DNA of 64,000 nt from Eubacteriales bacterium (GCA_045660295.1 JAZRDN010000007.1:5438-69437), one strand, 5' to 3'. Positions 1,198 through 18,906 are shown, counted from the first letter of the stretch. A program made the numbers and translations. The notes: generated by a model not told the origin, from the sequence alone.

Positions 1198-2556
1198 ATG
1201 GGAAGACTTTTTGGAACTGACGGAATAAGAGGCATCGCCAACACCGAGCTTGGTTGCGACAAAGCAATGACCATCGGACGAGCCGCCGCTATCGTTCTGT
1301 CAAAGGGTCTTGAAAAAAGACCTACGTTTATCATAGGCTCGGACACCAGAGCGTCCTCCGAAATGCTTGGCGCGGCGGTATCGGCAGGAATCTGCTCGGC
1401 GGGCGCTAATGTCATCATGCTCGGCGTTGTCCCCACCCCCGCGGTAGCCTATCTCGTACAGACCTGCAAAGCAGACGCGGGCGTTATGATCTCGGCATCA
1501 CACAACCCCTTTGAGTACAACGGAATCAAGATCTTCAACGGTGACGGCTTCAAGTTGCCCGACGAGCTTGAGGAAGAAATAGAGGATATTATCCTGGGCG
1601 TTGAGGCGGTAGAAAGCCAGCCCCCCACAGGCGGCGAGATCGGTCGTATTACCTACAAGTACGACGCTGTTTCGACTTACATGGAGCACGTAAAGGCATC
1701 GACCGCGGCAAATTTTGAGGGACTCAACATCGCTATCGACTGCGCGAACGGCTCGTCCTCTGTATCGGCTGAAAAGCTTTTCGTTGAGCTTGGCGCTACG
1801 GTACATATGCTCAGCAACCACCCCAACGGAATCAACATCAACAAGAACTGCGGCTCTACCCACATGGAGCGCCTGCAAAAGTACGTGCTTGACAACAAGC
1901 TCGATTGCGGTCTCGCCTTTGACGGAGACGCCGACAGATTTCTCTGCGTTGACGAAAAGGGCAACATCATCGACGGCGACATGATAATGGCTATCTGCTC
2001 GCTTGATATGAAGAAAAAGGGCAAGCTTGCTCAAAACACGGTAGTCGGAACTATCATGACAAACTTCGGATTTACCAAGTTCTGCGCCGAAAACGGAATT
2101 AATTTCATCGCAACAAAGGTTGGCGACAGATTCGTGCTTGAGGAGATGAATCTTTGCGGCTACGCGCTCGGTGGCGAGCAGTCGGGTCACATCATATTCC
2201 GCGAATACGCGACCACGGGCGACGGTCAGCTCACCGCCGTTCAGCTTCTTTCTATCATGGTTGAGGAGAAAAAGACGCTCTCCGCGCTTGCTTCGGTAAT
2301 GACCAAGGCGCCTCAGACTATGATAAATCTCGAAATTTCGGCAAACGGAAAGCGACTTTTCTATACGGACGCTACTGTCAAAAAGGCGATCGACGACGCC
2401 GCGGCAGAGCTCGGAAGCACGGGAAGGATCGTTGTTCGTCCCTCGGGAACAGAGCCTCTTATCAGAGTTATGGCTGAGGGTGAGAACACCGAAATTATCG
2501 AAAATGTTGCCAAGAAGGTTGCCGATGTCATTACAGTAAGACTTGGCAACAAGTAA
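1198..2556 (+). CDS. glmM: Phosphoglucosamine mutase
   Basis: MGRLFGTDGIRG N-terminus, ISASHNP phosphoserine loop, DGDADR metal loop, GGEQSGH. Confidence 0.97.
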   Translation: MGRLFGTDGIRGIANTELGCDKAMTIGRAAAIVLSKGLEKRPTFIIGSDTRASSEMLGAAVSAGICSAGANVIMLGVVPTPAVAYLVQTCKADAGVMISASHNPFEYNGIKIFNGDGFKLPDELEEEIEDIILGVEAVESQPPTGGEIGRITYKYDAVSTYMEHVKASTAANFEGLNIAIDCANGSSSVSAEKLFVELGATVHMLSNHPNGININKNCGSTHMERLQKYVLDNKLDCGLAFDGDADRFLCVDEKGNIIDGDMIMAICSLDMKKKGKLAQNTVVGTIMTNFGFTKFCAENGINFIATKVGDRFVLEEMNLCGYALGGEQSGHIIFREYATTGDGQLTAVQLLSIMVEEKKTLSALASVMTKAPQTMINLEISANGKRLFYTDATVKKAIDDAAAELGSTGRIVVRPSGTEPLIRVMAEGENTEIIENVAKKVADVITVRLGNK

Positions 2557-2559
2557 TAA

Positions 2560-2697
2560 GATGCGAGCGCCAGACCGTCTTACGGCGGTTAACGAGGTAG
2601 AGGATTTATCGAAATATTCGGCGGATATCCTCTCGGCAGATACAACTGTCGCAGGCTGTTTACAAATATACGGGCAACCGTAAAACAAAAAGACAGT
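2560..2697 (+). ncRNA. glmS ribozyme (GlcN6P-activated riboswitch-ribozyme)
   Basis: AGCGCCAGAC...GTTAACGAGG...TTTATCGAAATATTCGGCGGAT...ACAAA...ACAAAA matches the glmS ribozyme core; it lies directly 5' of glmS. Confidence 0.92.
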
Positions 2698-2725
2698 CAA
2701 ATAATATTTGAGGTAACGATTTAAT

Positions 2726-4558
2726 ATGTGTGGAATCATTGGTTATACAGGAGCAAAAGACACGGTAAAGGTTCTTCTCGACGGGCTTGAAACCCTTGAG
2801 TACCGCGGATACGATTCCGCGGGCATTGCGCTCTACACGGGCTCGGGAATAAGAACCATCAAATCCAAGGGCAAGCTGGCGGTTCTTGCCGAAAAGCTTA
2901 AGAATTTCGGAACTATCAATTCCTCTTGCGGCATCGGTCACACCCGTTGGGCTACTCACGGCGAGCCGTCAGACCGCAACTCGCACCCCCATTTTACCGA
3001 AAATCTCGCTCTCGTTCACAACGGCATTATCGAAAACTACGCCGAGCTTGCGGCGGTGCTTGAGGCAAACGGCTACACCTTTTTGTCCGAGACCGACACC
3101 GAGGTGGCGGCGAAACTTATTGATATGCTCTATATCAAGTACAAAAATCCCCTTAAGGCAATTTTTGAGTCAACCGAAATAATTCGCGGCTCTTACGCCT
3201 TCGGAATTGTGTTCGCGGACATTCCCGACACAATTTATTCCATAAGAAAGGACTCGCCGCTTATCGTGGCAAGGTCCGCAGACGGCGGTATGATCGCTTC
3301 CGACATCCCCGCCATACTGGCTCACACCAAGGAATATTACCGCCTTGACGAGGGCATTGTGGCAAAGATAACGCGCGACGAGGTGCGCTTTTACACAAGC
3401 GATTTCAGCGAGGTCGGGCAGAAGCTCGAAAAGATCGACTGGGACGTTGAACAGGCTCAAAAGGGCGGTTATCCTCACTTCATGATAAAGGAGATACATG
3501 AAGAACCCGAGGCAGTGAGAAAAACCCTCGCGCCAAGAATCAGAAATCGGCTTCCCTTCTTTGAGGTCGAAGCGCTCGACACCGATTTTATCAACCGCTT
3601 TGAGCGTATTCACATAGTTGCCTGCGGCACGGCTATGCACGCGGGACTTGTGGGAAAAACGATAATCGAAAGGCTGGCGCGAGTTCCCGTAATTGTGGAG
3701 ATTGCCAGCGAGTTCAGATACCGCGACCCGATACTCGGCAAAAACGACCTTGTTATCCTGCTTTCACAGTCGGGCGAAACCGCAGACACGCTGGCGGCGC
3801 TCAGGCACGCCAAGGCGTGCGGAGTCTATACGCTTGCCATCGTCAACGTAATGGGCTCGTCGGTAGCCCGCGAGGCAGACAGCGTAATCTACACGTGGGC
3901 TGGTCCCGAAATAGCGGTAGCAAGCACCAAGGCTTACACCGTCCAGTGCGCGCTTCTTTACCTTTTCGCCATAAGACTTGCGATAGCAAAGGACAAAATA
4001 AGCGAAGCCGACGCGGCGGCGCTCTGCGCGGATATGCTTACTGAAATTCCTCGCTCCATTGAAGAAGCGCTTAAGCTCGAGGAGCAGATAATGAACTGCG
4101 CAAAGAGCTTTGTCACCGCGGAGCACCTGTTCTTTATCGGTCGCGGAATTGACTATTCCATAGCCGTAGAGTCCTCTCTGAAGCTCAAGGAGATATCCTA
4201 TATCCACAGTGAGGCATACGCGGCGGGCGAACTGAAGCACGGCACTATCTCTCTGATTGAGGAAGGAACGCCCGTAATCGCTATCACCACAGAGAAAAGG
4301 ATATGCGAAAAGACGGTATCGGGCATCCGAGAGGTCAAGGCGCGCGGTGCCAACGTACTTTCGGTGTGCACCGAGTCGCTTTCAAAGCAGTTCAATATTC
4401 CCTGCAACGAAATGCTGATAGTTCCCGATACCCGTGAGGAGCTTGAGCTTTTCCCCGCGGCGACTATTTTGCAGTTGTTTGCATACTCGGTATCGTATGC
4501 AAAAGGGCTCAACGTTGATAAGCCCAGAAATCTCGCAAAATCGGTAACAGTTGAATAA
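2726..4558 (+). CDS. glmS: Glutamine--fructose-6-phosphate aminotransferase
   Basis: N-terminal MCGIIG, GIGHTRWATHG, SQSGETADT, ELKHG, PRNLAKSVTVE C-terminus. Confidence 0.98.
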   Translation: MCGIIGYTGAKDTVKVLLDGLETLEYRGYDSAGIALYTGSGIRTIKSKGKLAVLAEKLKNFGTINSSCGIGHTRWATHGEPSDRNSHPHFTENLALVHNGIIENYAELAAVLEANGYTFLSETDTEVAAKLIDMLYIKYKNPLKAIFESTEIIRGSYAFGIVFADIPDTIYSIRKDSPLIVARSADGGMIASDIPAILAHTKEYYRLDEGIVAKITRDEVRFYTSDFSEVGQKLEKIDWDVEQAQKGGYPHFMIKEIHEEPEAVRKTLAPRIRNRLPFFEVEALDTDFINRFERIHIVACGTAMHAGLVGKTIIERLARVPVIVEIASEFRYRDPILGKNDLVILLSQSGETADTLAALRHAKACGVYTLAIVNVMGSSVAREADSVIYTWAGPEIAVASTKAYTVQCALLYLFAIRLAIAKDKISEADAAALCADMLTEIPRSIEEALKLEEQIMNCAKSFVTAEHLFFIGRGIDYSIAVESSLKLKEISYIHSEAYAAGELKHGTISLIEEGTPVIAITTEKRICEKTVSGIREVKARGANVLSVCTESLSKQFNIPCNEMLIVPDTREELELFPAATILQLFAYSVSYAKGLNVDKPRNLAKSVTVE

Positions 4559-5107: not shown

Positions 5108-7615
5108 TTATTTCTTAAGTCCCAGCTTCTCGACCGCGTCCTCACGCATCTTATACTTGAGTATCTTGCCTGCCGCGTTCATCGGGAAGGCCTTTACAAA
5201 GTCGATATATCTGGGCACTTTATGACGCGCCATGTGGGAAACGATATAATCCTTCATTTCCTCAACAGTCATATCCTCGCCCTCTTTGAGAATTATACAA
5301 GCCATTATCTCCTCGCCGTAGCGCTCGTCGGGCACGCCGATGACCTGAACGTCACGCACCTTGGGATGAGTATAGATAAATTCCTCTATCTCCTTGGGGT
5401 AAATGTTCTCACCACCGCGGATTATCATATCCTTAAGGCGACCCGTGATACGGTAGTTACCGTTCGAGTCACGGCAAGCGATATCGCCTGTGTGAAGCCA
5501 GCCGTCAGCGTCAATAGCGTCGCGGGTAGCGATGGGCATTTTATAATAACCCTTCATTACGTTATATCCGCGCGCCACGAACTCGCCGTTCTCGCCGTCG
5601 GGAAGCTCCGCGCCGGTTTCGGGGTCAATTATCTTACATTCAACATGCGGGAAAGCGTATCCGACTGTCTCGGTACGATCGTCTATGGGGTCGTCAAGCT
5701 CGCTCATGGTACATCCGGGCGAAGCCTCGGTCTGACCGTAAACGCTGACGATACCGCGCATATTCATCTCGTCGGGCTGTGCCGCGCGCTTCATAAGGTC
5801 AGCGGGGCAGTTAGCGCCAGCCATAATTCCCGTTCTCATATAAGAGAAATCGGTCTTGCGGTAGTCCTCATGGTTGAACATCGCTATAAACATTGTGGGA
5901 ACGCCGTTAAAGGCAGTAATATGCTCGTCATTTACGCAAGCAAGCGCGGATTTGGGTGAGAAATACGGAAGCGGATAGATAGACGCGCCGTGTGTCATTG
6001 AAGCGGTCATGGAAAGCACCATTCCGAAGCAATGGAACATAGGAACCTGTATCATCATGCGGTCGGCGGTGGAAAGATCCATTCTGTCGCCGATACACTT
6101 ACCGTTGTTGACAACGTTATAGTGAGTAAGCATAACGCCCTTGGGGAAGCCTGTCGTACCCGATGTGTACTGCATATTACATACGTCATCAGGCTCAACT
6201 GCCGCCGCGCGGCGATATACTTCTTCAAGCGGAACTCGATGAGCAAGTCCAAGCGATTCCTCCCACGTAAGGCAGCCCTCCTTGCGGAAGCCTACGGTAA
6301 TAACGTTACGCAAGAACGGAAGTCTCTTACAGTGAAGCGGCTCGCCCGCCTTTGTGTCCTTAAGCTCAGGGCAAAGCTCGCTGATAGTGCCGTTATAGTC
6401 CGAGTCTCTCCAGCCGTCAACCATAATAAGAGTATGGGTATCCGACTGACGAAGCAGATATTCAGCCTCGTGGATCTTATAAGCGGTATTCATAGTAACC
6501 AGCACCGCGCCGATCTTTGTGGTCGCCCAAAAGGCAATATACCACTGGGGCACGTTGGTCGCCCAGACAGCTACGTGATGACCGGGCTTTACGCCAAGCG
6601 CGATAAGCGTGCGCGCGAATGTGTCAACGTCGTCTCTGAACTCGGCATAAGTCCTCGTATAATCAAGAGTAGTATACTTAAAGGCTATCTGGTCGGGAAA
6701 TTCCTCGACCACAGCGTCAAGCACCTGCGGGAAGGTAAGGTCAATAAGCGACTCCTTTTTCCAAAGGAACTTACCCGTGTGAGTCTTGTTGCTGTAAAGC
6801 GTTTTCTTGTTCTTTTTGGGGTCGTCGAAGTGGTGCATATAGCTGACGAAATGAGAGAAGATTATCTCTATATCGTCTATATCGTCAAGCCACTTGGAGT
6901 CCCACTCAAGAGACACGAAGCCGTCGTAGTTTACGGCGCGAAGGCTATTCATCATGTCGCTCATGGGAAGCTCACCCTCACCGATAAGGCAATACTTAAG
7001 CTCGCCGTTATCGCGCTTTGAGTCCTTGATATGCACGTGCTTAACGTACGCACCGAGATTTTTTATAGTAATGTCGGGGGCCTCGCTCGCCGAGAAATAC
7101 GTATGATACATATCCCAAAGCGCGCCGAGGTTGTCCGAAGCAAAATGATTAAGCACGTCGCGGAGCTTTTCGGTAGTAGCGAAAAGTCCGACAGTTTCAA
7201 GCAGAATTGTTACTCCTGTCTTTTCGGCGATGGGAAGCATAACGTCAAGACACTTCTCTGTCATTTCCATATCGCCGTCGGTAATACCCGTTCCCGCGTG
7301 AATACGGACGTAGGGTATCTTGAGGTTTCTGGCGGTATTGATGCAATCACCGATCTCCTTGCAGTTCTCGTCAAACGCCGCGGAATCGGCTATATTGCAA
7401 GCCGCGTCAAGACAAGGAATAGACAGACCTCTGTTTATCATATCCCTTACGATAGCAAAAGAATTTGCGGGATCAAAGGGGTTACCGGAGCTGCGAAATT
7501 CCTTGTTTTTTATATTATGAAGCTCTACGCCGGCAAAGCCAAGCTCGGAAGCGATATTGCAGTAATCCTCCCAGCCGTAATTCTGCCAGCCCTTGATGGA
7601 GAATGACAGTTTCAT
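5108..7615 (-). CDS. Fusion of a xylose-isomerase/AP-endonuclease-2 TIM barrel with an AMP-dependent acyl-CoA synthetase
   Basis: N-terminal TIM motifs LLETVG, WDMYH, HVHIKD, SLEW. C-terminal QYTSGTTGFPKG, YGQTE, WLHTGD and GKILK adenylate-forming motifs. Confidence 0.85.
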   Translation of the reverse strand: MKLSFSIKGWQNYGWEDYCNIASELGFAGVELHNIKNKEFRSSGNPFDPANSFAIVRDMINRGLSIPCLDAACNIADSAAFDENCKEIGDCINTARNLKIPYVRIHAGTGITDGDMEMTEKCLDVMLPIAEKTGVTILLETVGLFATTEKLRDVLNHFASDNLGALWDMYHTYFSASEAPDITIKNLGAYVKHVHIKDSKRDNGELKYCLIGEGELPMSDMMNSLRAVNYDGFVSLEWDSKWLDDIDDIEIIFSHFVSYMHHFDDPKKNKKTLYSNKTHTGKFLWKKESLIDLTFPQVLDAVVEEFPDQIAFKYTTLDYTRTYAEFRDDVDTFARTLIALGVKPGHHVAVWATNVPQWYIAFWATTKIGAVLVTMNTAYKIHEAEYLLRQSDTHTLIMVDGWRDSDYNGTISELCPELKDTKAGEPLHCKRLPFLRNVITVGFRKEGCLTWEESLGLAHRVPLEEVYRRAAAVEPDDVCNMQYTSGTTGFPKGVMLTHYNVVNNGKCIGDRMDLSTADRMMIQVPMFHCFGMVLSMTASMTHGASIYPLPYFSPKSALACVNDEHITAFNGVPTMFIAMFNHEDYRKTDFSYMRTGIMAGANCPADLMKRAAQPDEMNMRGIVSVYGQTEASPGCTMSELDDPIDDRTETVGYAFPHVECKIIDPETGAELPDGENGEFVARGYNVMKGYYKMPIATRDAIDADGWLHTGDIACRDSNGNYRITGRLKDMIIRGGENIYPKEIEEFIYTHPKVRDVQVIGVPDERYGEEIMACIILKEGEDMTVEEMKDYIVSHMARHKVPRYIDFVKAFPMNAAGKILKYKMREDAVEKLGLKK

Positions 7616-9024
7616 ATCTGGTTCTCCTCGTACGCGATCTTATTGAGAGCCGCCACGTATGCTCGGATGCTTGCGCCGATAATATCGGTGGAAAGTCCGT
7701 TGCCCGAATAGAGCTTGCCGTTTGAGCGAAGCTTTACAAGCGCCGAGCCCATTGCCTCACGTCCCTCGGTCACAGACTTTATCTGGAAGTCGTCAAGCTC
7801 GTAGTGATGTCCGATTATCTGCTCGATAGCGCGGAATGCCGCGTCGATAGGACCGTCGCCCACGCTGATGCCCTCAGTGATAGCGCCCTTCTTTTCAAGC
7901 TGAATGTGAGCGGTAGCCGTGATAACGTTTCCGCTATTGATAACGTAGCTCTTAAGCACGAATGTGGGGGGAACCTGAAGCGCCGCGCTTGCGACTATGG
8001 CGTCAAGCTCAGCCTCGCCCACGTTCTTCTTTTCCGCCACGCGGCAGAACTCCTCGTAGACCTTTGCGTTGTCCTCCTCGGAAAGCTCGTAGCCAAGCAG
8101 CTTGACTGCCTTGCACACGGTGGGCATATCGTCGTCAGACTTAAGGTTGATAACACCGGCCACGTGAGCAGTGCCCATGCTTGCCGATTTATCTCTTTCC
8201 TTGGGGGCAAGTATCCAGTTGATCTGCGCGGTAAGGCGCTTAAGCTCTGTTATTTTGATGCCGCACTCGATGCCAAGCTCAATTCCGCGAGCCGCGATAA
8301 GCTTTGCAAAAACATCGGTGGAAAGGCAGTTTACAGCAACCGCCGCGAGCTTTATCTCGTCAACGTCGCACTTAACCGCCGCCACGGTATTTGCCGCCAC
8401 CATATCTATGGAATTGGAAAGCTGAACTCCCAGCTTTGCGCCTGCAATCACGGGAGCCGCCGCCTTAACACTTGCGATAAACGCGCTCATCTCCTCAGGA
8501 AGCATTGTTCCCGCATCGTCGCAAATGGTCACAACAGTTGCGCCTGCCTCGACTGCGGCAACCATAGCGGTTGCGAGGAACGGAATCTCGCTTCTTGTAG
8601 CGTCCTCTGCGACAAATTCGGTCTCAACGCCGAAGGATGCCGCTTTCGCAACCAAGCTCTTTATGCTCTCAAGCACCGCCGCGGGCTTTTTGTGGCAAAA
8701 ATACTCCATCTGAACGGGAGAGGTAGGCACTCTGACCTGAAGTCTCGCCTTATCAGCGTCTGCTATTGCCGAATAAGCCACCTCAACCGAAGCCTCGTCA
8801 TTTCCCACGGGCAAAGCGAGCGTGCTGTGCTTAAGGAAAGGAAGGATGGTGCGTGCCAGAAGCACGTCGGTCTTTTCGTTCTCAATGGGAGCAAGCTCGA
8901 TAACGTCAACGTGCATCTTATCAAGATTTCTGGCGATCTCTATCTTTTCCTTAAAAGACAGAGGCGCCTCTGCTCCCGTGCGGTTTATTCTCAGCGTTGT
9001 ATCGGAAATATATATCTTTTTCAT
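7612..9024 (-). CDS. 2-isopropylmalate-synthase-like protein with degenerate catalytic motifs and an intact C-terminal regulatory domain
   Basis: DTTLR is followed by INRTG instead of DGxQ. HxH is replaced (GVQLSNS). The C-terminal LeuA allosteric domain (GDGPIDAAF, EGREAMG) is present. Confidence 0.8.
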   Translation of the reverse strand: MKKIYISDTTLRINRTGAEAPLSFKEKIEIARNLDKMHVDVIELAPIENEKTDVLLARTILPFLKHSTLALPVGNDEASVEVAYSAIADADKARLQVRVPTSPVQMEYFCHKKPAAVLESIKSLVAKAASFGVETEFVAEDATRSEIPFLATAMVAAVEAGATVVTICDDAGTMLPEEMSAFIASVKAAAPVIAGAKLGVQLSNSIDMVAANTVAAVKCDVDEIKLAAVAVNCLSTDVFAKLIAARGIELGIECGIKITELKRLTAQINWILAPKERDKSASMGTAHVAGVINLKSDDDMPTVCKAVKLLGYELSEEDNAKVYEEFCRVAEKKNVGEAELDAIVASAALQVPPTFVLKSYVINSGNVITATAHIQLEKKGAITEGISVGDGPIDAAFRAIEQIIGHHYELDDFQIKSVTEGREAMGSALVKLRSNGKLYSGNGLSTDIIGASIRAYVAALNKIAYEENQI

Positions 9025-9132
9025 TGTTTAAGTTCACCTTTCATGGAATTTTTGTGTGCGTTTTTTATGCACAAATTATACATTAATCGCCCACAAAGAC
9101 TATCCCTCGGGCGTAAAAGTAAAATTCTTTGA

Positions 9133-10200
9133 TTACTTTGTTATGGGATATGTCCAGTTATAGGTGTCCTCTAGTCGTCCCCACTGAATTCCTGTCAAGG
9201 TGTCGTAAAGCTCCTGTGTTGTCTCGCCTATCTTTCCGTCATTGATAACGTATCTCTTGCCGTTATAATGAAGCTCGCCGATAGGAGACACAACAGCCGC
9301 GGTACCGCAGCCCCAGCCCTCTTTAAGAGTGCCGTTTTCAAGAGCATCAATAAGCTCGTCGATAGAGAGAAGTCTCTCAGAGACCTTCTGTCCCTTAGCC
9401 TTAAGAAGCTCTATGCACGATTTTCTCGTGATACCGGGAAGAATAGAGCCTGTAAGCGCGGGGGTTACAACCTCGTCGCCAATCTTGAACATTACGTTCA
9501 TGGCGCCGACCTCCTCGATATACTTACGCTCAACGCCGTCAAGCCAAAGAACCTGAGAGAAGCCCTTCTTTTCAGCCTTCTCGCCCGCTCTGTTGGACGC
9601 GCCGTAGTTACCGCCGCACTTGGTGTAACCCGTACCGCCGCGAACCGCGCGGACGTCCTCGGTCTCTATCATAATCTTAACGGGGTTAATTCCCTCTTTG
9701 TAGTAGCTTCCTACGGGAGAGAGAATGATAACGAACATAGAACGGTTGATGGAGTGAACGCCAAGGAAGGGGTCTGCTCCAAAGAGGAAGGGTCTGATAT
9801 AAAGAGACGTACCGGGAGCTGAGGGAACCCAGTCCTGCTCTACCTCAATAAGCTTTGTAAGGGCTTCGAGAGCGTCCTTTTCATCAAGCAACGGAAGGCT
9901 CATACGGTCTGCCGAGCTGTTCATTCTCTTTATATTCTCCTCGGGTCTGAAAAGCTGAACCTTACCCGCTGCGGTGCGGTAAGCCTTAAGACCCTCGAAT
10001 ATCTCCGCGCCGTAATGGAACACTGTGCAGGCGGGGTGAAGCTCAAGATTAGCAAAAGGAACTATTCTCGCGTCATGCCAGCCCTTATCACGTGTGTAGT
10101 CCATTATAAACATGTGGTCAGTGAAATATTTTCCGAAACCGAGCTCGCTCGCATCAGGCTTTTGCTTGGGAGCGGCGGTTTTCTGAATTTTGATCTCCAT
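9133..10200 (-). CDS. ilvE: Branched-chain amino acid aminotransferase
   Basis: FHYGAEIFEGLKAY, LYIRP, TKCGGNY, EEVGAMN, ILPGITR. Confidence 0.95.
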   Translation of the reverse strand: MEIKIQKTAAPKQKPDASELGFGKYFTDHMFIMDYTRDKGWHDARIVPFANLELHPACTVFHYGAEIFEGLKAYRTAAGKVQLFRPEENIKRMNSSADRMSLPLLDEKDALEALTKLIEVEQDWVPSAPGTSLYIRPFLFGADPFLGVHSINRSMFVIILSPVGSYYKEGINPVKIMIETEDVRAVRGGTGYTKCGGNYGASNRAGEKAEKKGFSQVLWLDGVERKYIEEVGAMNVMFKIGDEVVTPALTGSILPGITRKSCIELLKAKGQKVSERLLSIDELIDALENGTLKEGWGCGTAAVVSPIGELHYNGKRYVINDGKIGETTQELYDTLTGIQWGRLEDTYNWTYPITK

Positions 10201-10232: not shown

Positions 10233-10769
10233 TCAGTCCTTATAATTATAACCAAGCTCAAGAGCCTTAAGGTTAGCGCCTATAAGGTCGGCGCGCTTTG
10301 CCGAAACTATCTTCTTGAACACGTCCTCAAGACCGTCGAAGTCAACCGCGCCGGTCTCCTTAATGAGCTTGCCAAGAAGTATCATATTAGCAAGTGTGGG
10401 GACGCCTGCCTCTGCCGCCATTTTCGTAGCGGGAATATAGTAAGCGTCAACGTCTGTTCTCTCGACCTTTCTCTCGATAAACGAGGAGTCAACGAATATC
10501 TTACCGCCCTTTGCAACTGCGTTTTCGTACTTGTCAAGCGAGGGAAGATTCATAACCATAAGCACGTCGGGATTATCGACGATAGGCGAACCAACGGGGG
10601 TATCACTTATAATAACGCTACAGTTTGCCGTTCCGCCTCTCATTTCGGGACCGTAGGAAGGAAGCCAGCTAAGCTCCTTATTTTCATACATTCCCTTATA
10701 AGCCAGAAGCTTACCCGCAAAGAGAACGCCCTGACCGCCAAAGCCCGCAATCAAAATCTGATTTGTCAT
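10233..10769 (-). CDS. 2-oxoacid:ferredoxin oxidoreductase gamma subunit
   Basis: AGFGGQGV and [12 protein letters not shown] motifs. Confidence 0.92.
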
Positions 10770-11518
10770 TTCTGTTCCTCCTCTGCGGTTTTGTCCTTAT
10801 ATACGCCGAGAGGATAGTAAGGAAGCATCTTTTCCTCCACCCACTCAAGCGCCTTTGAGGGTGTAAGACCCCAGTTTGTGGGGCAGGTGGAAACGACCTC
10901 AACAAGAGAGAAGCCCTTTCCGTTTACCTGATTTTCAAACGCCTTCTTTATAGCCTTCTTCGCGTTCTTTACGTTCTTTACGTTATTTACCGCTACTCTT
11001 TCAAGGTATGTAGCGCCCTCAAGCTCGGAAAGAAGCTCGCAAACGCGGATAGGATAGCCTGCGGTCTTGGTGTCACGTCCGTAGGGAGAGGTCTGTGTCA
11101 CCTGACCGGGAAGCGACGTGGGAGCCATCTGACCGCCTGTCATGCCGTAGATAGCGTTGTTTACGAAGATTATGGTGATATTCTCGTTTCTTGTAGCGGC
11201 GTGGATAGTCTCAGCCATACCGATAGAAGCGAGGTCACCGTCACCCTGATATGTAAAGACGATATTATCGGGGTTTGCGCGCTTAACGCCCGTAGCAACT
11301 GCGGGTGCGCGTCCGTGAGCCGCCTGAACCATATCGCAGGCGAAATAGTTATATGCCATAACAGAGCAGCCTACGGGAGCGATACCAATAGTCTTGCCCT
11401 CGATGCCAAGCTCGTCAATAGCCTCTGCTACGAGTCTGTGAATAATACCGTGTGTGCAGCCGGGACAGTAGTGAAGCGGCGCATCGGTAAGAGAATGGGG
11501 TTTATCAAATACTACCAT
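10766..11518 (-). CDS. 2-oxoacid:ferredoxin oxidoreductase beta (TPP-binding) subunit
   Basis: YCPGCTHG, GDGD, NNAIYGMTGGQ, CPTNW. Confidence 0.92.
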   Translation of the reverse strand: MVVFDKPHSLTDAPLHYCPGCTHGIIHRLVAEAIDELGIEGKTIGIAPVGCSVMAYNYFACDMVQAAHGRAPAVATGVKRANPDNIVFTYQGDGDLASIGMAETIHAATRNENITIIFVNNAIYGMTGGQMAPTSLPGQVTQTSPYGRDTKTAGYPIRVCELLSELEGATYLERVAVNNVKNVKNAKKAIKKAFENQVNGKGFSLVEVVSTCPTNWGLTPSKALEWVEEKMLPYYPLGVYKDKTAEEEQK

Positions 11519-12576
11519 CAGTTAATACCTCCTGCTTCCTTAATTTTCGCAAGAACCTGCTCGGGAGAGGGGATCATGCCGCCTGCTCTGTTGCAAAGAA
11601 GCACAGGCTTTTTGCAGCGTGTGGCAAGCTCAACGTCCTCGATCATCTGTCCCATAGACATCTCAACCGTAACGAACGCGTTGACCTTGTCAGCCGCCTC
11701 GCGGAGAACCTTCTTGGGGAAGGGCCAAAGCGTAATAGGTCTGATCATACCTACCTTGATACCCTGCGCGCGAGCCGCCGTAATAGCGTTCTTGGAAACT
11801 CTTGCGGCAATACCGTATGCAACGACGCAGATCTCGGCGTCGTCCATCATGTATTCCTCATACATTACCTCGTTTTCTTCGATCTGCGCGTACTTTTGGT
11901 AGCGCTCGAAGTTAAGCTGCTCAAGCTCATCGGGAACAAGCGAAAGAGAGTTGACGATATTGTGCTTTCTCTGCATCTTCGTGCCCGTTACAGCCCAAGG
12001 CTTGTCATATTTCTTCTGCTCGGGAATATCGAGAGAAACAGGCTCCATCATCTGACCCATAGTACCGTCAGCGAGTATCATGGAAACCATTCTGTACTTA
12101 TCCGCAAGCTCAAAGCCCTTAACCGTCATGTCAGCCATTTCCTGAACAGACGCGGGAGCGAGAACGATATTTCTGTAGTCACCGTGTCCGCCGCCCTTAG
12201 TGCACTGGAAATAATCCGACTGAGAGGGCTGGATACCTCCGAGACCGGGGCCTCCGCGCTGTACGTTGATAACAAGAGCGGGAAGGTCACAACCCGCGAG
12301 ATAAGATATACCCTCGCTCTTAAGCGAGATTCCGGGGCTGGAGCTGGAAGTCATAACTCTTCCGCCCGCCGCCGCAACGCCGATAACCATATTGATAGCC
12401 GCGACTTCGCTTTCAGCCTGAAGGAAAGTACCGTCTATCTTAGGCATACGCTTTGCCATGTATGCCGCAATTTCTGTCTGAGGTGTAATGGGGTAGCCGA
12501 AGTAGTGACGGCATCCCGCAAGAATAGCCGCTTCGGCGATAGCCTCGTTACCCTTCATCAAAACCTTTTCTGCCAT
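11518..12576 (-). CDS. vorB: 2-ketoisovalerate:ferredoxin oxidoreductase-type alpha subunit
   Basis: MKGNEAIAEAA, GYPITPQTE, QAESEVAA, SSSPG, QRGGPG. Lies next to ilvE. Confidence 0.85.
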   Translation of the reverse strand: MAEKVLMKGNEAIAEAAILAGCRHYFGYPITPQTEIAAYMAKRMPKIDGTFLQAESEVAAINMVIGVAAAGGRVMTSSSSPGISLKSEGISYLAGCDLPALVINVQRGGPGLGGIQPSQSDYFQCTKGGGHGDYRNIVLAPASVQEMADMTVKGFELADKYRMVSMILADGTMGQMMEPVSLDIPEQKKYDKPWAVTGTKMQRKHNIVNSLSLVPDELEQLNFERYQKYAQIEENEVMYEEYMMDDAEICVVAYGIAARVSKNAITAARAQGIKVGMIRPITLWPFPKKVLREAADKVNAFVTVEMSMGQMIEDVELATRCKKPVLLCNRAGGMIPSPEQVLAKIKEAGGIN

Positions 12577-12610
12577 TTTAATCCTCCGTATCCGTTTTAA
12601 CGGTTAGTTT

Positions 12611-12817
12611 TTATTTCTCAACTTTTATGATGCAATCGGGGCACATTGTAGCGCAGAATGCGCAACCGATACAAGCCTCTTGGTTTGTTATCTCGGCAAC
12701 GTAATGTCCCTTTTTGTTGATTTTCACCTTGGAAACCTCAAGAATATGCTTGGGGCAGGCGTCAACGCAAAGTCCGCAGCCCTTACACATATCAACGTTA
12801 AATGTCAGCTTAGCCAT
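12611..12817 (-). CDS. 2x[4Fe-4S] ferredoxin (oxidoreductase delta subunit)
   Basis: Two CxxCxxCxxxCP motifs. Confidence 0.92.
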   Translation of the reverse strand: MAKLTFNVDMCKGCGLCVDACPKHILEVSKVKINKKGHYVAEITNQEACIGCAFCATMCPDCIIKVEK

Positions 12818-12829
12818 TTATTTTTCCTC

Positions 12830-13504
12830 CTAAATCAGTTTTTTCTGCAATTTCATTTTCAAAAGCCTGCCGTTCCCTTCCCCAAGGCTCTCGATGCCGT
12901 CAAAGCAAGGAAAATCGGGGACGGTGGTGAGCTTGATATCAAGTCCCGATAGTCGTGATACGCTCTCTGCGTATTCAAACGAATCCTTGACCGTTTGGGG
13001 TGTGGTCTCGGGTCCTAAATTGGAGTTGTTTACAATTCCGTTAAAGGGTATACCCGACGCCGCCTCTATCTCACGCATTATCTCCACCGTATCCTCGGGT
13101 GTCGAGGTAAGCGGACGGTAGCAATTGATAACGAAAAGCATATCGTAGTCGTTTTCTTCAAGTATGCTCGGCGTATATCTGCCCAAAGCGAAAGCGCCTC
13201 GGTCGTCTCCGCCGATATCAAGCACCGCGTGGCGGTTCTTGTCGAAAACCACTTTATACATCTCTGCGGGAAGTGCGGGCAGGTCCACGTTCGAGTTAGC
13301 GAACTCTGGGGATATAAGGTGTATTCCCGCCTCGGTCAGTTCCCTTTCGCTGTCCTTTGTTCGGAAATAAGGATTGACCGTATCAAGGTCGGCGATAGTG
13401 ACCTCAAGCCCCGACGCCTTAAGCTCGAAGGCGTAATTCACCGCCGCGTTGGTCTTTCCGCTTCCGTAGTGACCCGCGAAAAGCGTTATTCTTTTATATT
13501 CCAT
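12830..13504 (-). CDS. P-loop NTPase (MinD/CbiA-like) of unknown function
   Basis: GHYGSGKT Walker A, DLDTVNPYFR, DIGGD. Confidence 0.75.
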   Translation of the reverse strand: MEYKRITLFAGHYGSGKTNAAVNYAFELKASGLEVTIADLDTVNPYFRTKDSERELTEAGIHLISPEFANSNVDLPALPAEMYKVVFDKNRHAVLDIGGDDRGAFALGRYTPSILEENDYDMLFVINCYRPLTSTPEDTVEIMREIEAASGIPFNGIVNNSNLGPETTPQTVKDSFEYAESVSRLSGLDIKLTTVPDFPCFDGIESLGEGNGRLLKMKLQKKLI

Positions 13505-13519
13505 ATGCCCTCCGACGAA

Positions 13520-15820
13520 TTAAAGCTTGTTTCTCTGTATCTTTCCGCTGGTTGTCTTGGGCAACTCTGTCTTAAATACTACTATTCTGGGATACTTATA
13601 GGGTGCTGTACGGCTCTTTACGTAGCTCTGAATCTCCTTCTTAAGCTCGTCTGTGCCCTCTGTTCCCTTGGTAAGCACGATGCTCGCCTTGACCACCTGA
13701 CCTCTTACCTCGTCGGGAGCGGCGGAAACACCGCACTCGAGAACGTAAGGAAGCTCCATAATAACGTTTTCGATCTCAAAGGGACCGATACGGTAGCCCG
13801 AGGACTTGATAACGTCGTCAACTCGTCCAACGTACCAGAAATATCCGTCCTCATCACGCCAAGCGGTATCGCCCGTATGATAATATCCGTCGTGCCATAC
13901 CTCGTTTGTTTTTTCACTGTCGTTATAATAACCTCTGAAAAGTCCGCAGGGCGCGCCGTTCTGTACGTTTATACAAATTTCACCCGTTTCACCCACAGGA
14001 ACCTCGTTTCCGTCTGCATCAAGCAGCTTGATGTCGTAAAGCGGAACAGGCTTACCCATAGAACCGAGTCTTGCCTTTGTACCGATAAGGTTAGCAAGCG
14101 CAACGGTGGTCTCGGTCTGACCGAAGCCCTCCATTATCTGCAGTCCCGTAGCCGCCTCGAACTGTCTGAACACCTCGGGGTTGAGAGCCTCGCCCGCTGT
14201 GGTCATATGCTCGATAGTCGAGAGGTCGTACTTTGAGATATCCTCTTTAACCATAAGTCTGAGCATCGTAGGCGGTGCGCAGAAGGTGGTGATATTATAC
14301 TTAGCGAACATAGGAAGGATATCGTGAGCGTCGAAGCGGTCAAAGTCATAAACGAACAGACCTGCCTCGCAGAGCCACTGCCCGTAAATTTTACCCCACG
14401 CCGCCTTAGCCCAGCCGGTGTCCGAGATGGTAAGGTGGAATCCGTCGGGATTTACGCAATGCCAATACTTGGCTGTAATAAAGTGACCGAGCGGATATTT
14501 GTAGTTATGGCAAGCGATCTTGGGATTGCCCGTAGTGCCCGAGGTAAAGTACATGAGCATAAGCTCCTCGCCGCAAGCGGTGTCCTCGGTGCGCTCGAAT
14601 TTACCCGTGTAAAGGTTATATTCGTCGTCGAAGCTTCTCCAGCCCTCTCGCGTGCCGCCGACAATTATCTTAGTCTCAAGGCACTCGGCGTGCGCCGACG
14701 CCTTATCGACCTCTGCCGCCACGTTGTCGTCGGCGGTACAAAGCATCGCCTTTACGCCCGCGGCGTTAAGTCTGTATTCGATATCGTGCTCCTTAAGCTG
14801 ATTGGTTGCGGGAATAGCCACCGCGCCCAGCTTATGAAGCGCCACCATAGCGAACCAGAACTGGTAATGTCTCTTCAGGATAAGCATTACCTTATCGCCC
14901 TTCTTGATACCCAGCGACTTGAAGTAGTTAGCGGTCTGTGAGGACGCGCGCTTAAGGTCGGCGAAGGTAAATTTTCTTTCGGTCTTATCCTTTGCGATAT
15001 GAACCATAGCCACCTTATCGGGCTGTTCAACGCCGATTCGGTCAACCACGTCAAATGCAAAGTTGAATTTATCCTCGTTCTTGAAGTCTATAGCCTTAAG
15101 AATTCCGTTGTCATCCTCTGTGGGAATAATGAAATCCTCCCATACGCGGCGTCTTGTCGCCTTGACCTCGCTCTTTCTGGGCTTGGCGGTAAACTCCTTG
15201 ACCGCGCTGTGGGTGATTTCCGACATAGAAACGCCCGCGGGGTTAAGAACTATCGCGTAGAAGTAACAGTCTTCACCGCCGATAGCTATCATACCGTGAG
15301 GCGTGGAGCTATCGTAGTAGATGCTGTCGCCTTCCTCAAGAATCTCCTGATGGTCGCCCACCTGAACCTTAAGCCGTCCCTTAACCACGATGTCACATTC
15401 CTGTCCCTCGTGGGTGGTAAGCTCTATCGGCTCATACTCAGCCTTTTCCGAGTACACGCAGTGAACGTAAAGAGGGTTTGAGGTTCTGTTTCTGAAGGAG
15501 TGCGCGATATTGTAATAGGTCATTCCGTGCGCCTGCTCGATCCTCTGTCCCATTCCGCGTCTTGTAAGGGTATAGGATTTAAGTCTGGGAGCAGCGCCCT
15601 CGATGATCTCGGTAACGTCAATGCCCAGCGCGGTAGCGCATCTGAACAGGAACGCAAAGTTAAGGTCGGAGCGACCCTCCTCGCACTCTACGTACTCGCC
15701 GATGCTTACGTCGGTCTTTGACGCCATATATTCAATGGTATAGCCTTCCATTTCACGGAGCGCCTTGATACGCCCCGCCATGGCTTTTATTTTCTGGTCG
15801 ATGTCGTTAAAATTACTCAT
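13520..15820 (-). CDS. XRE-HTH + cupin + acyl-CoA synthetase fusion (paralog 2)
   Basis: N-terminal HTH, THEGQE cupin, YFTSGTTGNPK, FGQTET, YHTGD, SGKIQR. Confidence 0.9.
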   Translation of the reverse strand: MSNFNDIDQKIKAMAGRIKALREMEGYTIEYMASKTDVSIGEYVECEEGRSDLNFAFLFRCATALGIDVTEIIEGAAPRLKSYTLTRRGMGQRIEQAHGMTYYNIAHSFRNRTSNPLYVHCVYSEKAEYEPIELTTHEGQECDIVVKGRLKVQVGDHQEILEEGDSIYYDSSTPHGMIAIGGEDCYFYAIVLNPAGVSMSEITHSAVKEFTAKPRKSEVKATRRRVWEDFIIPTEDDNGILKAIDFKNEDKFNFAFDVVDRIGVEQPDKVAMVHIAKDKTERKFTFADLKRASSQTANYFKSLGIKKGDKVMLILKRHYQFWFAMVALHKLGAVAIPATNQLKEHDIEYRLNAAGVKAMLCTADDNVAAEVDKASAHAECLETKIIVGGTREGWRSFDDEYNLYTGKFERTEDTACGEELMLMYFTSGTTGNPKIACHNYKYPLGHFITAKYWHCVNPDGFHLTISDTGWAKAAWGKIYGQWLCEAGLFVYDFDRFDAHDILPMFAKYNITTFCAPPTMLRLMVKEDISKYDLSTIEHMTTAGEALNPEVFRQFEAATGLQIMEGFGQTETTVALANLIGTKARLGSMGKPVPLYDIKLLDADGNEVPVGETGEICINVQNGAPCGLFRGYYNDSEKTNEVWHDGYYHTGDTAWRDEDGYFWYVGRVDDVIKSSGYRIGPFEIENVIMELPYVLECGVSAAPDEVRGQVVKASIVLTKGTEGTDELKKEIQSYVKSRTAPYKYPRIVVFKTELPKTTSGKIQRNKL

Positions 15821-15850: not shown

Positions 15851-16121
15851 AAAACAAAACTCGTCTCAAAGACGTGAAGAATCTTTGAGACGAGTACAAT
15901 TAATTCTACCCGCGGTACCACTCAACTTGCGCCGATACGGCGCCACTCTCGGACTCAAAGAAGCCCTATGCGTTCACGCAGCAATCACGGAGAGGTTCTA
16001 CTTGCTCTCGCTTTCTTCCTCTCGGCTCGGGGGCTACAAACACCGACCCGCACAACACCGACTTACACCAGCCGTCGGCTCTCTGCGCTTCTGCGAACCG
16101 TATTCTCCCCGTCCTCGCCTT
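15851..16121 (-). promoter_or_regulatory. T-box riboswitch with a probable Val (GUA) specifier, plus terminator
   Basis: AAGTTGAGTGGTACCGCG T-box (15911-15928), K-turn, AG bulge and GCTGGTG distal loop, GUA at 16035-16037, terminator hairpin 15859-15894. Promoter TTGACA-17-TAGAAT at 16141-16169. Confidence 0.88.
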
Positions 16122-16220
16122 TCATATTATATGTATTAAAATTCTATCACATTTTTATCATCTTGTCAAGCAATATCGAAAGTTTTCGAAATTTCGGCAA
16201 ATTTCACAATTTTCGCGTGA

Positions 16221-18550: not shown

Positions 18551-18820
18551 AAAAAACAAAACCGTCTCAAAGAAATTTCTTTCTTTGAGACGGGTAAAAA
18601 TCATTTTATCCGCGGTACCACTCAAATTGCGCCAACAAGACGCCACCTCTTCGGACTCCGGCAAGCCCTATGCGTTAACGCAGCAATCACGGGAGAAGCC
18701 TACTCGTATTCTTTCAGCACTCCGGCTCGGAAGTGATAGGTTTATAAACGCTCTGCCATTGGCTCGCACCCTACGCCAACTCTCTGGAAGCATACCGTTT
18801 GACCGTCTTCGTCACAGCCT
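18551..18820 (-). promoter_or_regulatory. T-box riboswitch with a probable Ile (AUC) specifier, plus terminator
   Basis: AATTTGAGTGGTACCGCG (18611-18628), K-turn GAC-GAAG/CUUC-CGA, AUC at 18735-18737, terminator 18561-18594. Promoter TTGACA-17-TATAAT at 18840-18868. Confidence 0.88.
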
Positions 18821-18906
18821 TTTTTATTTGGTTGTGGTGATTATACACCTTTTTCCCCGATTTGTCAAGAGATTTTTTGAATTTTTTCTCATTTTTCTCT
18901 CATTTT

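Follow-up and report, generated by a model that had tools for sequence, protein, structure and literature searches.

LeuA, the isopropylmalate synthase (EC 2.3.3.13; TIGR00973/PRK00915), is a DRE-TIM metallolyase (structures 3rmj, 3ewb, and 1sr9/3fig) in which a TIM barrel is followed by subdomains I and II and by a regulatory domain with a doubled beta-beta-beta-alpha arrangement. From its subdomain I, the HxSGIHQ...SGR segment contributes a His and a Tyr to catalysis in the active site of the partner. The citramalate synthase CimA of Leptospira interrogans (3f6g/3f6h), which is catalytically active and inhibited by isoleucine, shares this fold and has a C-terminal domain of the same amino-acid-binding type. 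HisZ, a dead histidyl-tRNA synthetase paralog, is the histidine-sensing regulatory subunit of the short-form ATP phosphoribosyltransferase HisG, and IlvN/IlvH is the small valine-binding, ACT-type regulatory subunit of acetohydroxyacid synthase. Dedicated AMP-forming ligases activate short branched acids, as exemplified by MbcS of Staphylococcus aureus, a branched-chain carboxylate acyl-CoA synthetase (PMC10026030; PMC11167679), and rumen microbes are known to carboxylate isovalerate to leucine (PMC7356843). No published description of a pairing between a dead LeuA and an acyl-CoA ligase was found.

The window (the whole stretch of DNA analyzed, 64,000 nucleotides from an Eubacteriales bacterium) contains a LeuA-like gene and an acyl-CoA ligase gene at the end of an operon with Ile and Val T-boxes, an oxidoreductase, and IlvE; all features given below lie on the minus strand. 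The LeuA-like gene (P0001; open reading frame and translation) occupies 7612–9024, exactly as in the preliminary description, and encodes 470 aa. Its product has the LeuA domain architecture, with an HMGL-like (DRE-TIM) barrel (PF00682, residues 3–224, E = 2.9e-30), accessory subdomains, and a LeuA_dimer regulatory domain (PF08502, residues 335–463, E = 2.5e-30). AF2 predicts the fold confidently (pLDDT 92.2), and Foldseek matches this model to full-length Mycobacterium tuberculosis LeuA (3hps, 1sr9, 3fig; E about 1e-21). The degenerate barrel (residues 1–230; 8335–9024), characterized by alignments, superposition, and dN/dS, superposes on the catalytic domains of Listeria and Neisseria LeuA with TM scores of 0.83–0.92. 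Accessory subdomains I and II (residues 231–334; 8023–8334) were characterized by entropy, pLDDT, and alignment to true LeuA, and the C-terminal regulatory domain (7615–8022) by Pfam, entropy, motifs, secondary structure, and dN/dS. Subdomain II (LGYELSEED) is conserved. Despite the shared domain order, the LeuA-like protein is about 40 residues shorter than LeuA, and its gene is not found beside leuBCD, is always coupled to that of an acyl-CoA ligase, and is present in genomes that lack a true LeuA.

The motifs of the LeuA active site are lost from this protein. Three strings quoted in the preliminary description, DTTLRINRTG (residues 8–17), GVQLSNS (199–205), and AAVAVNC (227–233), were all found, and a HMMER alignment with Neisseria meningitidis LeuA (3rmj) sets them opposite DTTLRDGEQS, SAHCHND, and GLGERAGN; PDTVG of the same LeuA corresponds to CDDAG. 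The metal triad (Asp and His-x-His) is lost, with Ile13, Gln201, and Ser203 at these positions, as is GERxGN. Subdomain I, when aligned to true LeuA, is shortened and variable, with a shorter, unconserved segment in place of HxSGIHQ...SGR. Among 224 homologs, the column of the metal Asp holds E, Q, or I or is gapped, and those of the His-x-His pair hold Q/E/C/R and S/N/A/E; the metal columns are also non-His and non-Asp in 23 paired loci. The loss of catalytic residues is family-wide and not a chance quirk of a single sequence. With the NCBIfam equivalog models used for true LeuA (TIGR00973 and NF002086), the protein scores 243.5 bits (cut-off 598.7) and 265.4 bits (cut-off 532), and the score gap between the LeuA-like family and true LeuAs is clean across 399 genomes. 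The earlier suggestion that the protein is dead for Claisen condensation is well supported by this motif loss in the protein and its homologs. Judged from its sequence, the LeuA-like protein is a pseudoenzyme, having LeuA homology and lost essential catalytic residues in a gene that is under selection.

The C-terminal allosteric domain, previously noted as well conserved, has been kept intact and shows the strongest conservation in the protein by entropy (1.40, the lowest in the protein, versus 2.28) and dN/dS. Its identity to the regulatory domain of Clostridia LeuAs is about 40–50%, and the helix-cap motifs are the same. In the secondary structure of the AF2 model, the N-termini of two regulatory-domain helices are capped by GDGPIDAAF and SGNGLSTDII, and the helix-N-cap motifs GDGPIDAAF and GxGxSTDI are common to the LeuA-like family and true LeuAs. 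The helix-cap ligand site of the LeuA regulatory domain has been described (PMC11057210). The isoleucine-regulated domain of CimA (3f6g) reads GDGGYDAF, with Gly-Tyr where the LeuA-like protein has Pro-Ile, whereas the LeuA-like family and true LeuAs read GDGPIDAAF. The CimA regulatory domain (3f6g/3f6h) is the sole, and weak (E = 0.006), PDB sequence match to residues 319–470. The putative ligand pocket looks LeuA-type rather than citramalate-synthase-type, and the motif similarity suggests leucine as the ligand.

Compared with three close homologs, the LeuA-like gene has an overall dN/dS of 0.09–0.11, with about 0.10 in the barrel, 0.14–0.20 in the accessory part, and 0.02–0.06 in the regulatory domain. 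Full-length, intact LeuA-like proteins form more than 100 clusters at 50% identity, and the family is present in 78 of 399 sampled Clostridia genomes from many families. The gene is not decaying. True LeuA was found in three of the 78 carriers versus 134 of the 321 non-carriers. This count and the co-occurrence counts below come from related and hence non-independent genomes.

The LeuA-like stop codon is overlapped by the ATG of the next gene (ATGA, 7612–7615). This partner (P0002; 5108–7615; domain searches) encodes an 835-aa fusion of a xylose-isomerase-like TIM barrel (about residues 1–265) and an AMP-forming acyl-CoA ligase (296–835, PRK12583 type). Of the "coupled synthetase" in the preliminary description, the coupling stands, but the product is this TIM-barrel/acyl-CoA-ligase fusion and not an aminoacyl-tRNA synthetase. 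Hardly any variation is seen in the ligase domain of 40 orthologs, including at the C-terminal GK lysine. The linkage of the two genes, which had been proposed as a check, extends to other genomes: they are immediately adjacent in all 22 fetched relatives, in varied contexts, and 76 of the 78 LeuA-like carriers also hold the ligase fusion, the two exceptions being at contig ends. This genetic linkage points to a possible contact between the two proteins. About half of the genomes with the ligase fusion have no LeuA-like gene and group in the ligase tree as a single nested clade, and 12 of 26 examined partnerless cases have neither LeuA nor the LeuA-like gene. The LeuA-like protein is thus accessory rather than an obligate subunit, and is dispensable for ligase function. 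No fused LeuA-like/ligase protein was found, which counts weakly against a regulatory subunit.

The operon has two T-box leaders, each followed by a gene for an HTH-cupin-(MbcS-like acyl-CoA synthetase) fusion identified by domain and family searches. The first leader (18583–18824; specifier AUC, Ile; 85.7 bits, E = 2e-18) precedes the fusion at 16221–18491, and the second (15883–16124; specifier GUA, Val; 81.4 bits, E = 2e-17) precedes that at 13520–15820. Both leaders score slightly below the Rfam T-box gathering score of 93; with their specifiers and E-values of about 1e-17, the Ile and Val T-boxes reported earlier are real. Among named families, MbcS comes nearest to the two ligases under T-box control (433–443 bits; the equivalog cut-off of 850 is not reached). 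Unlike MbcS, the ligases in the window bear HTH-cupin or TIM-barrel N-terminal domains and would feed amino-acid rather than lipid synthesis, and the S. aureus system has no counterpart of the LeuA-like partner. Downstream lie a conserved P-loop protein of 224 aa (12830–13504; weakly ParA/CbiA-like by Pfam), which has the same position in loci L005, L006, L061, and L014, and a four-subunit 2-oxoisovalerate-type 2-oxoacid:ferredoxin oxidoreductase (10233–12817; domain and family searches) with delta (12611–12817), VorB-type alpha (11518–12576), beta (10766–11518), and gamma (10233–10769) subunits. These are followed by the branched-chain amino acid aminotransferase IlvE (9133–10200; NF009897, 478 bits, above cut-off). 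The AMP-forming ligases in the operon point to the anabolic direction.

Between ilvE and the LeuA-like gene is a 108-nt spacer (9025–9132) with a possible extended -10 element (TGTATAAT, 9082–9075; a putative promoter) and an AAGGTG ribosome-binding site. No T-box and no Rfam match were found in this spacer, and the pair here is without its own Leu T-box; feedback through the LeuA-like protein would therefore be the only leucine-specific control. Among relatives, 7 of 22 loci have a Leu (CUC) T-box directly 5' of the pair, with no other specifier seen there, and 17 of 26 loci have one 5' of a ligase without the partner; relatives with a CUC T-box are L006, L007, L019, L020, L026, and L036–L038. 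IlvE also neighbors the pair in differently ordered loci. With Leu T-boxes before the pair or the lone ligase in relatives, the leucine link is stronger than the preliminary description could see.

In this genome (93% complete), no LeuA, IlvC, or IlvD was found. Matches to leuB and leuC fall below family cut-offs and lie beside a citrate/homocitrate-synthase-like gene, and so look like isocitrate dehydrogenase and aconitase. A de novo leucine route was not found in this genome. We would give an even chance to the reading that the LeuA-like protein senses leucine as the regulatory subunit of a ligase that salvages isovalerate for leucine synthesis. The ligase fusion would most likely activate isovalerate to isovaleryl-CoA, the ferredoxin-dependent oxidoreductase would convert the latter to 2-oxoisocaproate by reductive carboxylation, and IlvE would transaminate this product to leucine. 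The LeuA-like protein would dimerize through its regulatory domains, bind leucine there as LeuA does, and pass the signal to the ligase by a presumed contact and with a presumed direction of regulation. The outcome would be feedback by leucine, the end product, on the salvage step that commits to leucine. HisZ provides a conceptual precedent, as a dead paralog with a kept amino-acid site that places a different enzyme under end-product control. It differs in fold, partner, and pathway, and the complex and allostery of HisZ are experimentally established, whereas those of the LeuA-like protein are inferred. The proposed role also resembles that of IlvN, which is a polypeptide of its own, binds a branched-chain amino acid, and feedback-inhibits the committed enzyme encoded beside it. 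However, IlvN is a small ACT-domain protein rather than a degenerate enzyme, and its partner is a ThDP enzyme rather than an acyl-CoA ligase.

Strict gene coupling and purifying selection on the entire protein, dead barrel included, would also fit a structural partner that senses nothing, such as a scaffold, a stabilizer, an assembly factor, or a bridge between ligase and oxidoreductase, with the regulatory domain kept only for dimerization. PF08502 is also a dimerization domain, and canonical metal ligands are missing from the N-terminal TIM barrel of the ligase in 7 of 23 partner-associated loci, a loss that would suit docking. We nevertheless consider a structural partner unlikely. Constraint is strongest at the two Gly-rich helix-cap motifs, which are common to true LeuAs and make up the ligand site, and pure dimerization would not require their invariance. 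The large clade of ligases that work without the LeuA-like protein also counts against it.

It is quite doubtful that the barrel was instead remodeled into a new enzyme required for leucine salvage, working without metal or with a different metal site on a substrate such as isovaleryl-CoA or 2-oxoisocaproate. In M. tuberculosis LeuA, mutating barrel Arg80 or Glu218 destroys activity (PMC10464499). The window protein retains Arg12 and Glu140 at the catalytic Arg/Glu positions, although the family has only 44% Arg and 40% Glu there. In the dead barrel, D8, T10, S102, D141, R144, D169, and K225 are conserved and dN/dS is about 0.1, a strong constraint that might reflect an additional ligand site or some other activity. 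A subgroup of homologs has Glu at the former metal-Asp and first-His positions, and metal binding may thus persist in some members; in the window protein, however, Ile, Gln, and Ser stand in for the metal triad. Where catalytic residues used to be, the family varies and the beta1 loop carries indels, with no new consensus fixed. The subdomain-I segment that completes the active site in LeuA is the least conserved (entropy 3.0 in subdomain I, the highest in the protein) and is predicted to be disordered (pLDDT below 50 at residues 278–289). Moreover, the salvage route needs no extra chemistry, and the partnerless ligase clade is likewise under Leu T-boxes.

Sensing of another metabolite (isoleucine, valine, 2-oxoisocaproate, or isovalerate) or regulation of another target (the oxidoreductase, IlvE, or gene expression) appears distinctly improbable. 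The ligand is suggested only by motif similarity, and the pair in the window is co-transcribed with shared Vor and IlvE genes after a Val T-box. However, Leu is the only T-box specifier seen before the pair, the ligand motif resembles that of LeuA and not that of citramalate synthase, and the ligase is adjacent in every locus, whereas Vor and IlvE vary in position or are absent (L007). The barrel of M. tuberculosis LeuA can bind 2-oxoisocaproate (PDB 3hps title), but 2-oxoacid binding in LeuA needs the metal, which is missing here. Finally, a functionless leuA relic left after loss of the isopropylmalate pathway is scarcely credible: although true LeuA is almost never kept in carriers and the catalytic residues have decayed, this idea is contradicted by the selection analysis (dN/dS 0.02–0.2), intact frames in the deep clusters and sampled genomes of many families, conserved translational coupling, and the confidently predicted fold.

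To a broader reading of leucine-sensing control we would give slightly less than an even chance. The isopropylmalate pathway may have been lost and the feedback module of LeuA then re-used, with the dead LeuA as a detachable sensor of leucine controlling an unrelated enzyme, the acyl-CoA ligase. In some lineages, where the metal ligands of the ligase TIM barrel are also lost, two dead barrels may make up the regulatory apparatus. Such a system would place the reductive carboxylation of isovalerate to leucine in gut and rumen Clostridia under allosteric control.

The LeuA-like gene (7612-9024, minus strand) is an open reading frame of 470 residues, and Pfam divides its product into an HMGL-like barrel (residues 3-224) and a LeuA allosteric/dimerization domain (335-463), both with E values of about 3e-30. 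Every LeuA model of NCBIfam matches the protein, with scores of 243-265 bits against cut-offs of 532-599. In the alignment with the N. meningitidis LeuA (3rmj), DTTLRDGEQ is replaced by DTTLRINRT, HCHND by QLSNS, GLGERAGN by AVAV..NC, and PDTVG by CDDAG. Furthermore, the subdomain-I HxSGIHQ...SGR of true LeuAs corresponds to a shorter stretch without those motifs. The alignment with 3rmj bears out the replacement of catalytic motifs claimed in the preliminary description. The AlphaFold2 model, for which 104 family members were used, has high confidence (pLDDT 92.2) except for residues 278-289 in the subdomain-I stretch. Foldseek matched this model to the full-length M. tuberculosis LeuA (E about 1e-21), and the barrel superposes on the catalytic domains of Listeria and Neisseria LeuA with TM scores of 0.83-0.92. 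The protein is a LeuA homolog in which the defining features of LeuA, namely the metal triad, the subdomain-I motif, equivalog scores, and pathway context, are all missing. We propose that this pseudoenzyme may be the leucine-sensing regulatory subunit of an isovalerate-activating ligase.

Upstream on the minus strand and in order of transcription, an isoleucine (AUC) T-box precedes an HTH-cupin-MbcS-like ligase, and a valine (GUA) T-box precedes a second HTH-cupin-ligase and a P-loop protein. Then follow a four-subunit 2-oxoisovalerate-type ferredoxin oxidoreductase (Vor), the aminotransferase IlvE, the LeuA-like gene, and the TIM-ligase fusion (5108-7615, minus strand). Both T-boxes had been expected from the first reading of the sequence, and their specifiers agree with it. 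A requirement for branched-chain volatile fatty acids, and the carboxylation of isovalerate to leucine, have been recognized in rumen and gut anaerobes since the 1960s. The AMP-forming ligases, the oxidoreductase, and the transaminase fit an anabolic route from branched acids. Such a route, from branched acid through acyl-CoA and 2-oxoacid to amino acid, has long been known in rumen bacteria (PMC7356843).

The two T-box-controlled MbcS-like acyl-CoA synthetases (13520-15820 and 16221-18491, both minus strand) have an N-terminal HTH (XRE-type) and a cupin fused to the enzyme, and this architecture recurs in loci L005 and L006. The product of the third ligase gene combines a xylose-isomerase-like TIM barrel and an AMP-forming acyl-CoA ligase of the PRK12583 type in one protein, so that all three amino-acid-specific ligases carry an extra N-terminal domain. 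The 224-aa P-loop protein (12830-13504, minus strand) has weak ParA/CbiA similarity and adjoins the oxidoreductase delta subunit on its upstream side. Its position is the same in loci L005, L006, L061, and L014, and it may serve the branched-chain 2-oxoacid:ferredoxin oxidoreductase as a so far unrecognized accessory or maturation factor. The LeuA-like/ligase pair follows the Val-T-box operon without a Leu T-box of its own. In the 108-nt spacer between ilvE and the LeuA-like gene, the extended -10-like TGTATAAT (9075-9082, minus strand; about 50 nt before the start codon of the LeuA-like gene) may, judging by its sequence, be an internal promoter for the pair; it is absent from the consensus promoter scan because no good -35 is found there. 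Elsewhere in the window, glmS (2726-4558) has a glmS ribozyme (2555-2708, plus strand; 74 bits) immediately upstream, and glmM (1198-2556) and a GlmU-like acetyltransferase come before the ribozyme.

The genome (1.64 Mb, 93% complete) has no detectable de novo pathway: at this completeness, ilvD, ilvC, and a true LeuA were not found. The only leuB- and leuC-like matches score below the family cut-offs and adjoin a citrate/homocitrate-synthase-like gene, and for these reasons look like isocitrate dehydrogenase and aconitase. The catalytic motifs of this homocitrate/Re-citrate-synthase-like gene are intact; one part of it lies at the end of contig C26 and the other at the start of contig C54. 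It also adjoins a GntR regulator (gene and surroundings in loci L001, L004, and L008-L010). The cluster is likely the oxidative branch to 2-oxoglutarate, and its synthase-like protein is the sole Claisen-condensing HMGL enzyme found in the genome.

Full-length LeuA-like members are present in 78 of the 399 sampled Clostridia genomes, about a fifth, and these carriers are spread over many families, although counts over the 399 genomes include related ones and are thus non-independent. Carriers were called by a full-length match of at least 249 bits; true LeuAs reach at most 166 bits with split matches, which leaves a clean gap. The TIM-ligase fusion is present in 76 of the 78 carriers, with both exceptions at contig ends, and the two genes are adjacent or overlapping in all 22 fetched loci. 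In the window, the start codon of the fusion overlaps the LeuA-like stop codon (ATGA). The "coupled synthetase" of the preliminary description therefore stands as far as the coupling is concerned. An aminoacyl-tRNA synthetase as the partner is ruled out by Pfam, which gives AMP-binding and AP_endonuc_2 domains. True LeuAs (TIGR00973, E <=1e-100) were found in 137 of the 399 genomes, comprising three of the 78 carriers versus 134 of the 321 non-carriers. Unlike all other carriers, G075, G106, and G389, which belong to one genus (represented by locus L029), have a true LeuA. The LeuA-like members of this genus are the most divergent (34-38% identity to the window's protein), and the L029 ligase is sister to the ligases that lack a LeuA-like partner.

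In three public contigs, the fusion directly follows the LeuA-like gene in three different contexts, and a CUC (Leu) T-box is directly upstream of the pair in two of them. In seven of the 22 fetched loci, the pair comes directly after a Leu (CUC) T-box, and no other specifier was seen; in the others, it is part of an operon in which IlvE lies before or after it. A Leu T-box for every pair is thereby ruled out, as it also is by the window. At L026, an Ile (AUC) T-box (L026:683-923, minus strand) comes after a unit of Leu T-box, LeuA-like gene, and ligase, which shows the same modular layout, each amino-acid-specific ligase having one T-box, although the order differs.

The fusion occurs about twice as often as the LeuA-like gene, and the partner-free ligases form one nested clade in a midpoint-rooted ligase tree of uncertain polarity. 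With a whole clade lacking the partner, dependence of the ligase on the LeuA-like protein is ruled out. A CUC T-box precedes the partner-free ligase in 17 of 26 examined loci (four confirmed by Rfam, 110-114 bits), and one such ligase lies directly in front of P-loop and Vor genes. Together, these observations point to the fusion as the route's leucine-specific enzyme, with the LeuA-like protein as an accessory.

The acyl-CoA ligase (ACS) domain is almost invariant in partner-free and partner-associated ligases, including the C-terminal GK lysine, and a search for large indels separating the two groups found none. The TIM domain is much more conserved in the former (entropy 1.00 vs. 1.70). Its canonical metal ligands E140, D168, H195, and E237 are invariant in all 26 partner-free ligases, whereas one to three of the four are replaced in seven of the 23 partner-associated ones; the window's ligase retains all four. 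The replacements occur at L019, L020, L026, L035, and L036-L038, and the window counterpart of this domain is 6821-7615 (minus strand). PDB and NCBIfam searches with the TIM domain returned only generic sugar isomerase/epimerase relatives, the closest being MJ1311 (E 3e-9). Complex prediction with the full LeuA-like protein and ligase residues 1-290 (the TIM domain; both with alignments) gave ipSAE values of 0.19 and 0.00 (mark 0.32), which speak neither for nor against binding. A search among longer proteins found no fused LeuA-like/ligase protein, which is weak evidence. Given the coupling of the two genes, the LeuA-like protein could also be a purely structural partner, which we regard as rather unlikely. 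As a regulatory subunit, it would contact the ligase, and we infer both this contact and the sign of the regulation.

A word-indexed search with the LeuA-like protein gave thousands of matches. The best 120 are about 470 aa long, come mostly from uncultured Clostridia and Oscillospiraceae, and, where named, are called [quoted passage not shown] or "hypothetical". In an exhaustive search, more than 100 full-length LeuA-like clusters (50% identity) rank ahead of true LeuAs. Among 224 aligned members, Glu, a gap, Gln, or Ile is found in the former metal-Asp column, Gln/Glu/Cys/Arg and Ser/Asn/Ala/Glu are found in the two former His columns, and the GERxGN region is variable. That no new consensus has become established at the catalytic positions favors loss over the emergence of a new active site. 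The barrel has a column entropy of 2.28 and, against three close homologs, a dN/dS of about 0.10; the entropy of subdomain I is 3.0 and the dN/dS of the accessory region 0.14-0.20, while the regulatory domain has values of 1.40 and 0.02-0.06. The protein is therefore functional, with the allosteric module as its most constrained part; the preliminary description had called this C-terminal domain well conserved. A remodeled barrel with a new enzymatic activity would be in line with the constraint on the barrel and the retention of several pocket residues, but the variable catalytic positions and degenerate subdomain I speak against it, and we consider it improbable. In several shorter singleton proteins from metagenomes (P0234, P0240, P0241, P0247, P0248, and P0269), the highly conserved LeuA-like regulatory domain is joined to an N-terminal fragment of unrelated origin (MFS, TGT, response regulator, MBOAT, 7TMR-HDED, and lectin fold). 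Because each fragment is a different singleton, these were rejected as real architectures and left out of the analysis; they are most likely assembly chimeras with breakpoints at the gene's conserved 3' region.

Within the regulatory domain, the LeuA-like family shows little or no variation in two Gly-rich motifs, GDGPIDAAF (389-397) and SGNGLSTDII (440-449). Both are shared with true LeuAs, whose leucine site is described in PMC11057210. In the AlphaFold2 model, each motif is at the N-terminal end of a helix (392-404 and 448-469, respectively). At the first motif, the domain of the isoleucine-regulated citramalate synthase (3f6g) has GDGGYDAF instead, so the ligand site of the family looks LeuA-type. 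This likeness in sequence supports, without proving, leucine as the ligand. That the protein senses a different ligand, or acts on a different target, appears quite improbable. That the gene is a functionless relic is barely credible, being contradicted by the dN/dS analysis.

In the proposed mechanism, the ligase, with isovalerate as its presumed substrate, would catalyze the committed, leucine-specific step of the salvage route, the later enzymes being shared with valine and isoleucine. Since the pair has no Leu T-box in this genome, a protein-level sensor would be its only leucine-specific control, in agreement with the proposal of the preliminary description. HisZ is a dead HisRS paralog that regulates HisG, and IlvN is the valine-binding subunit of acetohydroxyacid synthase; these would be the closest functional analogies to the proposed role. 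A literature search found no paper on a LeuA-derived pseudoenzyme.

The genes and control of the isovalerate-to-leucine route are still poorly defined. A complete gene set that lends itself to testing is present at this locus, where three amino-acid-specific ligases are combined with a shared ferredoxin oxidoreductase and transaminase, RNA-level T-box control, and a candidate protein-level leucine sensor. For annotation and metabolic models, a "LeuA" match in such genomes must not be taken to mean leucine prototrophy via the isopropylmalate pathway. If the sensor role is true, the family would, like HisZ, exemplify a pseudoenzyme, here a widespread one, whose allosteric domain has been transferred to a new pathway.
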